Shown here piece after piece: positions 1,122 through 1,592 of a stretch of 2,770 nt of DNA. Position 1 is the first letter of the stretch. Every line of letters starts with the position of its first letter. Position numbers and translations under genes: made by a program. The notes under the pieces were generated by a model that was given only the letters and a program-made list of their open reading frames with translations, searched no databases and was not told the DNA's origin. Origin of the DNA: a virus (taxonomy: Duplodnaviria > Heunggongvirae > Uroviricota > Caudoviricetes). Location of the stretch: IMG/VR virus record IMGVR_UViG_2654587571_000017, one strand, 5' to 3'.

Positions 1122-1550
1122 ATGAACGAATATGTTTATAGTGCCAGGCATAATGCTTTTTTCCCTGTGGATATGATTGATAAATATAAATCAGTAGGAT
1201 GGGATTTATCAGATGCTAAGGAGGTGAATCAAAATATTGTCAGTGAGTTTATGGCTGAACCGCCACAAGGAAAAGTCCGTATTGCCGGAGAGGATGGACT
1301 ACCTGCGTGGGCAGATATTCCTCCACCTACTCATGAAGAGCTTATTGAAATTACTGAATCAGAAAGACAGCTACTAATTAACCAGGCTAACGAATACATG
1401 AACGGTAAGCAATGGCCTGGTAAAGCCGCTATTGGTCGTCTGAAAGGTGAGGAACTGGCGCAATATAATTTGTGGCTGGATTATCTGGACGCACTGGAGC
1501 TGATCGATACTTCCGGTGCGTGTAGTGGCACACTAAATTTGGCCACCTGA
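1122..1550 (+). CDS. tfa: Tail-fibre assembly protein (Tfa / Mu U-like chaperone), with its 3' end disrupted by the IS insertion; the last 9 codons and the stop are encoded by the IS left end
   Basis: ATG at 1122 with an AGGGTGA Shine-Dalgarno-like sequence 7 nt upstream (the track's 1113 start is a GTG). The translation contains recalled blocks of enterobacterial Tfa proteins: [77 protein letters not shown]. After DTSGA (codons ending at 1520) the sequence becomes CSGTLNLAT-stop, which is encoded by the IS terminal inverted repeat instead of the expected conserved Tfa C-terminus (recalled as PDIEWP...). Confidence 0.85.
1521..1547 (+). repeat. Left terminal inverted repeat (IRL) of the IS3-family element
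   Basis: TGTAGTGGCACACTAAATTTGGCCACC. Positions 1532-1546 (ACTAAATTTGGCCAC) pair with the reverse complement of 2753-2767 (AGTAATATTGGCCAC) with about 3 mismatches. The 5'-TG start is typical of IS3-family ends. The exact outer boundary is uncertain by a few bp. Confidence 0.65.
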
Positions 1551-1592
1551 TGAAAGGTGATATTCTCACCACAACACAAAACAGGTGACTTA

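Follow-up and report, generated by a model that had tools for sequence, protein, structure and literature searches.

The insertion sequence (IS) at the 3' end of the tail fibre assembly gene (tfa) very probably marks a collinear deletion of about 11 kb that ends in the tail-terminator gene of an e14-type prophage, rather than a simple insertion. The window, i.e., the whole 2,770-bp stretch of DNA that was analysed, matches three complete E. coli chromosomes at 100% identity and represents the mcrA/pinE end of the prophage, beside the icd' pseudogene (Table 1). It stops 8 bp before the right end of the IS, and its own right flank was inferred from identical public sequences. The two junction sequences and the collinearity with the prophage head genes were observed directly, as was the lack of both a target duplication and a second crossover site.

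Table 1. Features of the 2,770-bp window.
Feature	Position	Strand	Evidence or remark
pinE, serine invertase, 184 aa, intact	107..661	-	Pfam Resolvase (1.8e-51) and HTH_7
Pin crossover site, pin-proximal, AAACGTTGGTTTGGGAGAAG	723..742		Paired with an inverted copy in intact relatives
Variable fibre C-terminal module, gp53-like, pin-proximal	691..1101	+	Pfam Gp53-like_C (1.8e-13)
Native tfa, 133 of 147 codons	1122..1520	+	Caudo_TAP (2.3e-22), match ends at residue 133
IS-encoded tail of the fusion ORF, CSGTLNLAT plus stop, in place of PDIEWPTPPAIQAR	1521..1550	+	
IS3-family element, ISEc31-like, full length 1258 bp	1521..2770 (to 2778 equivalent)	+	Ends from L001
Left inverted repeat, TGTAGTGGCACACTAAATTTGGCCAC	1521..1546	+	26-nt arms
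orfA, 103 aa, HTH_Tnp_1, with A AAA AAG at 1853-1859	1593..1904	+	Pfam
orfB part of the OrfAB transposase, with HTH_21 and rve DDE core	1859..2770	+	rve (6.1e-27)
Right inverted repeat, first 18 of 26 nt (GTGGCCAATATTACTTGA, then CCACTACA past the window end)	2753..2770	+	Final 8 nt beyond the window

The break lies between positions 1520 and 1521, with native tfa on the left and the left inverted repeat of the IS on the right. An uninterrupted allele (NZ_CM169495, hereafter L002) matches positions 1–1520 of the window at 99.9% and diverges from 1521. Across the break it reads ...ACTTCCGGTGCG followed by CCAGATATTGAATGG, and the window reads ...ACTTCCGGTGCG followed by TGTAGTGGCACAC; past position 1520 the uninterrupted allele continues as CCAGATATTGAATGGCCTACGCC..., where the window has TGTAGTGGCACAC... 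An abrupt end of Tfa similarity at 1520 had been pointed out in a sequence-only reading of this DNA, and both the alignment to this uninterrupted homologue and the Pfam match stop there. The same reading had attributed the following nine codons and the stop to the left inverted repeat of the IS, with which the translation of 1521–1550 (TGT AGT GGC ACA CTA AAT TTG GCC ACC TGA, giving CSGTLNLAT and a stop) agrees.

It is on the right junction that the model of a simple insertion breaks down. In the three complete carriers, which originate from different laboratories and countries and differ by 1–2 SNPs over 8.8 kb, the IS ends in CCACTACA followed by AGGGCCTTAAAG, continuing as CCACTACA followed by AGGGCCTTAAAGAGC. 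The same junction is present in three more assemblies that were retrieved via the exact fusion protein. The right end of the IS abuts approximately codon 101 of the tail-terminator gene in six of the seven public junction carriers with a right flank; in the seventh, a draft assembly (L103, GCA_001284765.1), the right flank is tssF instead. The flank derives from a minus-strand tail-terminator gene of 186 codons, of which it keeps the 5' 303 nt, or 101 codons, and coverage of the 150-position PF23840 profile falls accordingly, from positions 8–141 in the intact protein to 8–107 in the carrier. Beyond the terminator fragment, the carrier encodes head-closure, connector, capsid, protease, portal and terminase genes.

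The head module of the carrier is also found in an intact relative, NZ_CM142671 (L003/L006). In this relative, the genes next to the terminator gene are those for DUF2635, sheath, tube, the assembly chaperone, the tape measure and a DNA circularization protein; after them come the baseplate genes and ymfQ, then the fibre gene and finally the invertible segment. The right flank of the carrier aligns to this relative from L006 position 11024 onward at 96% identity, with gene order and orientation kept, and approximately 10,973 bp are missing by comparison. Since the 5' part of the terminator gene and the head genes keep both order and orientation, the rearrangement is a collinear deletion, and the possibility that an inversion had occurred in its place was rejected. 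The deletion would have removed the last 14 codons of tfa, the other tfa gene, and the distal fibre module together with the second crossover site. The constant region of the fibre gene and the genes for baseplate, tape measure, tube and sheath would have been lost as well.

The IS is preceded by GCG and followed by AGG, so there is no target duplication at the tfa-IS-terminator locus. Other copies of this IS family have clean 3-bp duplications (CAT, ACC, AAG, TTG and CTG), as does an identical copy within tssF of the carrier genome (AAT), which is why the missing duplication is informative: its absence is a property of the locus, i.e., of a rearrangement, and not of the element. The earlier proposal of a plain insertion, with a matching IS right end, a target-site duplication and then the remaining tfa codons or the second tfa, was therefore not borne out. 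A matching right end does exist 8 bp past the window, but the flank beyond it is unrelated and lacks the duplication, and in six of the seven public carriers the place of the tfa sequences is taken by tail-terminator DNA.

It is very unlikely that the window instead contains a simple insertion of the IS into tfa, with a 3–4 bp duplication and the rest of the segment complete just past its end. Arrangements of this kind do occur elsewhere: the intact relative L003 carries an IS with the duplication CAT together with both crossover sites and both tfa genes, and a P2-like prophage of E. coli W carries one with the duplication AAG and retains its crossover sites. However, in all public carriers of the exact junction with a visible right flank, that flank is a different one and the duplication is missing, and the right junction predicted for a simple insertion was absent from all collections searched. 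A chimeric query consisting of the last 300 nt of the IS, GCG and the rest of tfa/tfaE returned 0 records at ≥80% coverage in 5,426 complete E. coli genomes, and no instance of this junction turned up when metagenome contigs and IMG/VR were searched with a gapped pattern. Four matches reaching 13–21 nt beyond the IS end (H56–H59) were considered as relics of a lost junction and rejected, as their flanks are unrelated and the extensions are chance gapped ones; two of the four carry their own duplications, TTG and CTG.

With a repeated element at the junction, there is also the concern that the tfa-IS-terminator join arose by mis-assembly. The IS is present in multiple copies, including the identical one in tssF of the same genome, and one draft assembly does link the e14 flank to tssF across the IS. 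Against this, the identical structure was obtained in three independent complete chromosomes and several other assemblies, and the missing tail genes and the remainder of tfa were found beside no IS copy, making an assembly error extremely improbable. The tssF copy, in a type VI secretion system (T6SS) gene, is a simple insertion found in all three complete carriers (L109 543–1800, NZ_CP189657), in inverted orientation and approximately 1.1 Mb from the e14 copy. The join between the e14 tfa flank and tssF in GCA_001284765.1 (L103 6400–7700) could reflect a genuine inversion of 1.1 Mb between these copies or else an assembly error.

Two routes could have led to the collinear deletion. Homologous recombination may have occurred between two direct IS repeats, located in tfa and in the terminator gene, or an IS-mediated adjacent deletion may have started from a single copy, in which case either junction may be the original one. 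No intermediate that would separate these routes or mark the original insertion site was found. One version of the second route has the IS inserting first in the tail-terminator gene, with the tfa junction representing the far end of a leftward adjacent deletion. Neither flank has a partner duplication, meaning that either junction could be primary, and another prophage has a simple insertion of the ISEc31 family (duplication ACC) within the homologous gene, 27 bp from the position of the right junction, which indicates that the terminator region accepts the IS. However, a related simple insertion also lies 11–14 bp from the left junction, making tfa an equally plausible target, and no intermediate of either route was found. 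Furthermore, IS3-family elements move by a copy-out-paste-in mechanism via a circle, which makes an adjacent deletion less direct than recombination between two copies. We consider this order of events possible, though on balance unlikely.

The IS itself is a full-length element. L001, which is 100% identical to the whole window, places it at window-equivalent positions 1521–2778 (1258 bp). Its arms (1521–1546 and 2753–2778) pair at 20 of 26 positions (77% complementary), and its termini have the form TG...CA (TGTAGTGG...CCACTACA), constituting imperfect inverted repeats as in the IS3 family. The putative −1 frameshifting heptamer A AAA AAG lies in the orfA frame and RefSeq annotates a programmed frameshift, with a joined transposase coding sequence at 1593–2770 whose orfB stop (2768–2770) falls inside the right repeat. 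At the DNA level, the element is 92.8% identical to a copy with the PGAP label ‘IS3-like element ISEc31 family’; the name ISEc31 is used here solely on the strength of that label on a relative, as the element's own transposase is labelled ‘IS3 family’. Copies of the 1258-bp element with 100% identity are present in the P2-like prophage of E. coli W and in the tssF gene of the carrier. Given these identical copies at other loci, the element has probably been active recently.

Related elements are also found well beyond E. coli. A genome-contig scan recovered the exact 24-nt right end (GGCCARTATTACTTGACCACTACA) in 84 stretches (L013–L096) from many Gammaproteobacteria. Copies from Enterobacter, Mixta, Kluyvera, Erwinia, Serratia and Yersinia are 90–94% identical over 1258 bp, and the two non-enterobacterial copies that align over the full length, from Pseudidiomarina (L055) and an uncultured gammaproteobacterial MAG (L091), are approximately 63% identical overall with the terminal 24-mer kept. 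In many E. coli genomes (e.g., NZ_CP024245, L099 2533–3790), the same IS with an identical transposase is situated between truncated yfjP-like GTPase and ypjA genes, which looks like another IS-flanked deletion that is widespread among E. coli. An apparent association of the IS with a pinH remnant near ypjA was discarded, as the two are approximately 850 bp apart and their pairing was an artefact of match joining.

Insertions of related elements close to the two junctions were observed in other genomes. In NZ_CM142671 (L003 7713–8970), a 91.8%-identical isoform sits 11–14 bp further into the same tfa 3' end, in the opposite orientation to tfa and with a clean CAT duplication; both tfa genes and both crossover sites (6619–6638 and 9763–9782) are kept. 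An insertion of this type is present in 1 of 5,426 complete E. coli genomes. In NZ_AP043630 (L007 15043–16300), the PGAP-labelled ISEc31-family copy (92.8% identical, duplication ACC) lies in the homologous tail-terminator gene of a different prophage, beside intS, 27 bp from the right junction of the window lineage. Both junctions of the window IS accordingly have an independent neighbour insertion within 30 bp in other genomes. A 100%-identical IS with the duplication AAG is located in E. coli W (L008 5734–6991; also in KO11FL and in a record labelled DH5alpha), inside the P2-like invertible tail fibre segment between a short tfa-like ORF and fibre gene H, with the crossover sites present at 4513–4532 and 7332–7351.

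The neighbour searches would join insertions up to approximately 1–2 kb away, and that the neighbours were so close despite this reach hints at regional targeting. The 10-mer ACGCCTCCGG occurs in both the tfa 3' end (L002 9536–9545) and the terminator gene (L006 ∼10999–11008), within a few bases of the insertions in L003 and L007, with a rough post hoc chance of approximately 0.5%; no link between this 10-mer and the IS ends was found. Insertion into targets that resemble the IS ends is a behaviour of IS911. When such resemblance was scored by local alignment, the score of the tfa target was reached by 8% of background windows and that of the terminator target was below average, so this explanation was set aside, and there was no obvious consensus in the right flanks of ∼80 copies from other genomes. 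It is doubtful that phage tail genes, particularly the convergent tfa-tfa junction, harbour regional insertion hot spots for ISEc31-family elements. If they do, such hot spots would mean repeated disabling of host-range and defence switches.

The deletion bears directly on the invertible segment to which pinE, the fibre tip and tfa belong. Of the features that define such a segment, an intact adjacent serine invertase gene with Resolvase and HTH_7 domains is present, while the inverted pair of sites is not, and only the pin-proximal fibre-tip and tfa cassette remains. PinE corresponds to WP_000905000.1 in RefSeq, and the same protein is encoded beside the uninterrupted allele. Its gene is 96% identical at the DNA level to that of K-12 e14, and nucleotide homology to K-12 e14 at this level ends at 742, the end of the crossover site. 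The cassette past 742/743 is a different allele from that of K-12, which fits cassette exchange at Pin sites. The crossover site at 723–742 includes TTGGTTTGGGAGAAG, the repeat of the K-12 P segment (PMC12529663), and is the sole match in the 18.8-kb carrier locus, in which no second site was found. Two inverted crossover sites are present in each of the intact relatives, i.e., L002, L003, E. coli W and K-12.

In L002, the crossover pair (8723–8742 and 10606–10625) bounds a segment of approximately 1.9 kb, within which the tfa genes (9122–9565 on the plus strand and 9537–10139 on the minus strand) meet tail-to-tail with a 29-bp overlap, as had been expected for the segment centre. The break in the window is 16 bp ahead of this overlap and approximately 150 bp off the geometric centre of the 1.9-kb segment. 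The suggestion that the IS splits the segment was right as to the position of the break, but the segment is half deleted and presumably locked, not merely split. That the switch is disabled, as had also been suspected, is supported by the one Pin crossover site left in the carrier locus. Inversion by Pin-type systems needs two inverted sites, and with a single site the segment would no longer be able to invert. In K-12, inversion of the e14 P segment has been reported to yield a chimeric fibre protein that blocks adsorption of phage T2; both inverted repeats are needed, and deletion of either abolishes the inversion and the associated T2 resistance (PMC12529663). In lineages with the present deletion, inversion of the P segment in cis would be impossible. 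The intact PinE could still act in trans on other segments.

The remaining cassette appears complete at first sight. RefSeq names the product of 691..1101 a gp53-like domain-containing protein; this tip shares 27% identity with K-12 StfP across the C-terminal module and lacks the constant N-terminal part of the fibre. The native tfa product is 51% identical to K-12 TfaP. A scan for promoters and terminators over positions 600–1620 gave nothing above shuffled expectation. RefSeq calls the 142-aa IS-fusion Tfa an ordinary ‘tail fiber assembly protein’ (WP_001504197.1), and the index of the assembly collection has this exact protein in 110 blocks, which makes the junction a common one in at least one lineage of E. 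coli.

The fusion protein differs from the 147-aa product of the intact allele in more than its slightly shorter length of 142 aa. It lacks the 14-residue conserved Tfa C-terminus PDIEWPTPPAIQAR, and its match to the Pfam Caudo_TAP profile covers positions 3–121 of 131 (80 bits, above the PF02413 gathering score of 22.1 bits) and ends at residue 133, the last native one; the intact protein covers positions 3–130 with 101.6 bits. Replacement of the conserved C-terminus had been proposed from the window itself, and the comparison upholds it: the motif DTS.APD[IV].WP..P, present in K-12 TfaP, TfaE, E. coli W Tfa and the intact allele, is cut after TSGA in the window by the left end of the IS3-family element. 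Because the motif common to TfaP, TfaE and E. coli W Tfa is missing, loss of the predicted chaperone activity is plausible. Tfa proteins have been described as modular, their trimerization and assembly being driven by a conserved helical region at the C-terminus (PMC9608196). A PDB sequence search with the intact Tfa gave no match, and the role ascribed to the lost C-terminus accordingly follows from its conservation and from the modular Tfa model (PMC9608196). The function of Tfa is in any case moot: with the entire tail and the constant part of the fibre missing, the truncated protein would be left without a fibre to fold.

The wider locus is in keeping with the view of a decaying cryptic prophage put forward in the sequence-only reading. 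In the carrier, the e14-type remnant occupies approximately 14 kb between icd and icd' and is devoid of the integrase (int), excisionase (xis), regulatory and lysis genes. At its other end, beside icd, there is an IS3 element (L098 21600–23300, NZ_CP189657), which points to a second IS-associated truncation. What is seen here is ordinary prophage decay through an IS-associated deletion in an e14 remnant, and its importance beyond annotation is small. For annotation, however, there are two consequences: the tfa gene, annotated as intact with 142 aa, is in fact a product of fusion to the IS, and what seems to be a complete cassette of pinE, fibre and tfa is one half of a switch, presumably locked, in a prophage remnant without a tail.

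The closest known system is the P segment of K-12 e14 (pinE, stfE, tfaE, tfaP and stfP), which occupies the same site between icd' with mcrA and the prophage body. The two share the crossover repeat, and in K-12 there is a tip and a tfa gene on each side, with the tfa genes tail-to-tail (PMC12529663). In contrast, the tip in the window is gp53-like, and its lineage retains one module and one crossover site. The two prophages have also decayed differently: K-12 e14 lost its head and tail genes via a beeE/jayE fusion, whereas in the window lineage the head genes survive and the tail genes, beside the IS, are gone. The element resembles IS911 and ISEc31 of the IS3 group in its length of 1258 bp, its TG...CA ends with 26-nt repeats, its A AAA AAG motif, its rve DDE domain and the 3-bp duplications of its copies elsewhere, but differs in that the copy in the window has no target duplication. 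OrfA of IS911 is only about 55–60% identical to that of the window element. The G segment of Mu and the C segment of P1, served by Gin and Cin, likewise place an invertase gene beside a segment with two opposed cassettes of fibre tip and chaperone, of which the invertase-proximal one is the unfused copy. This cassette architecture is shown by L002 and L003, while the system in the window is a remnant that would be unable to switch. Finally, IS-flanked deletions are familiar from cryptic prophages of E. coli and Shigella, in which an IS with mismatched flanks marks a lost block of phage genes. The event described here is typical of this kind and shows no real difference from it.
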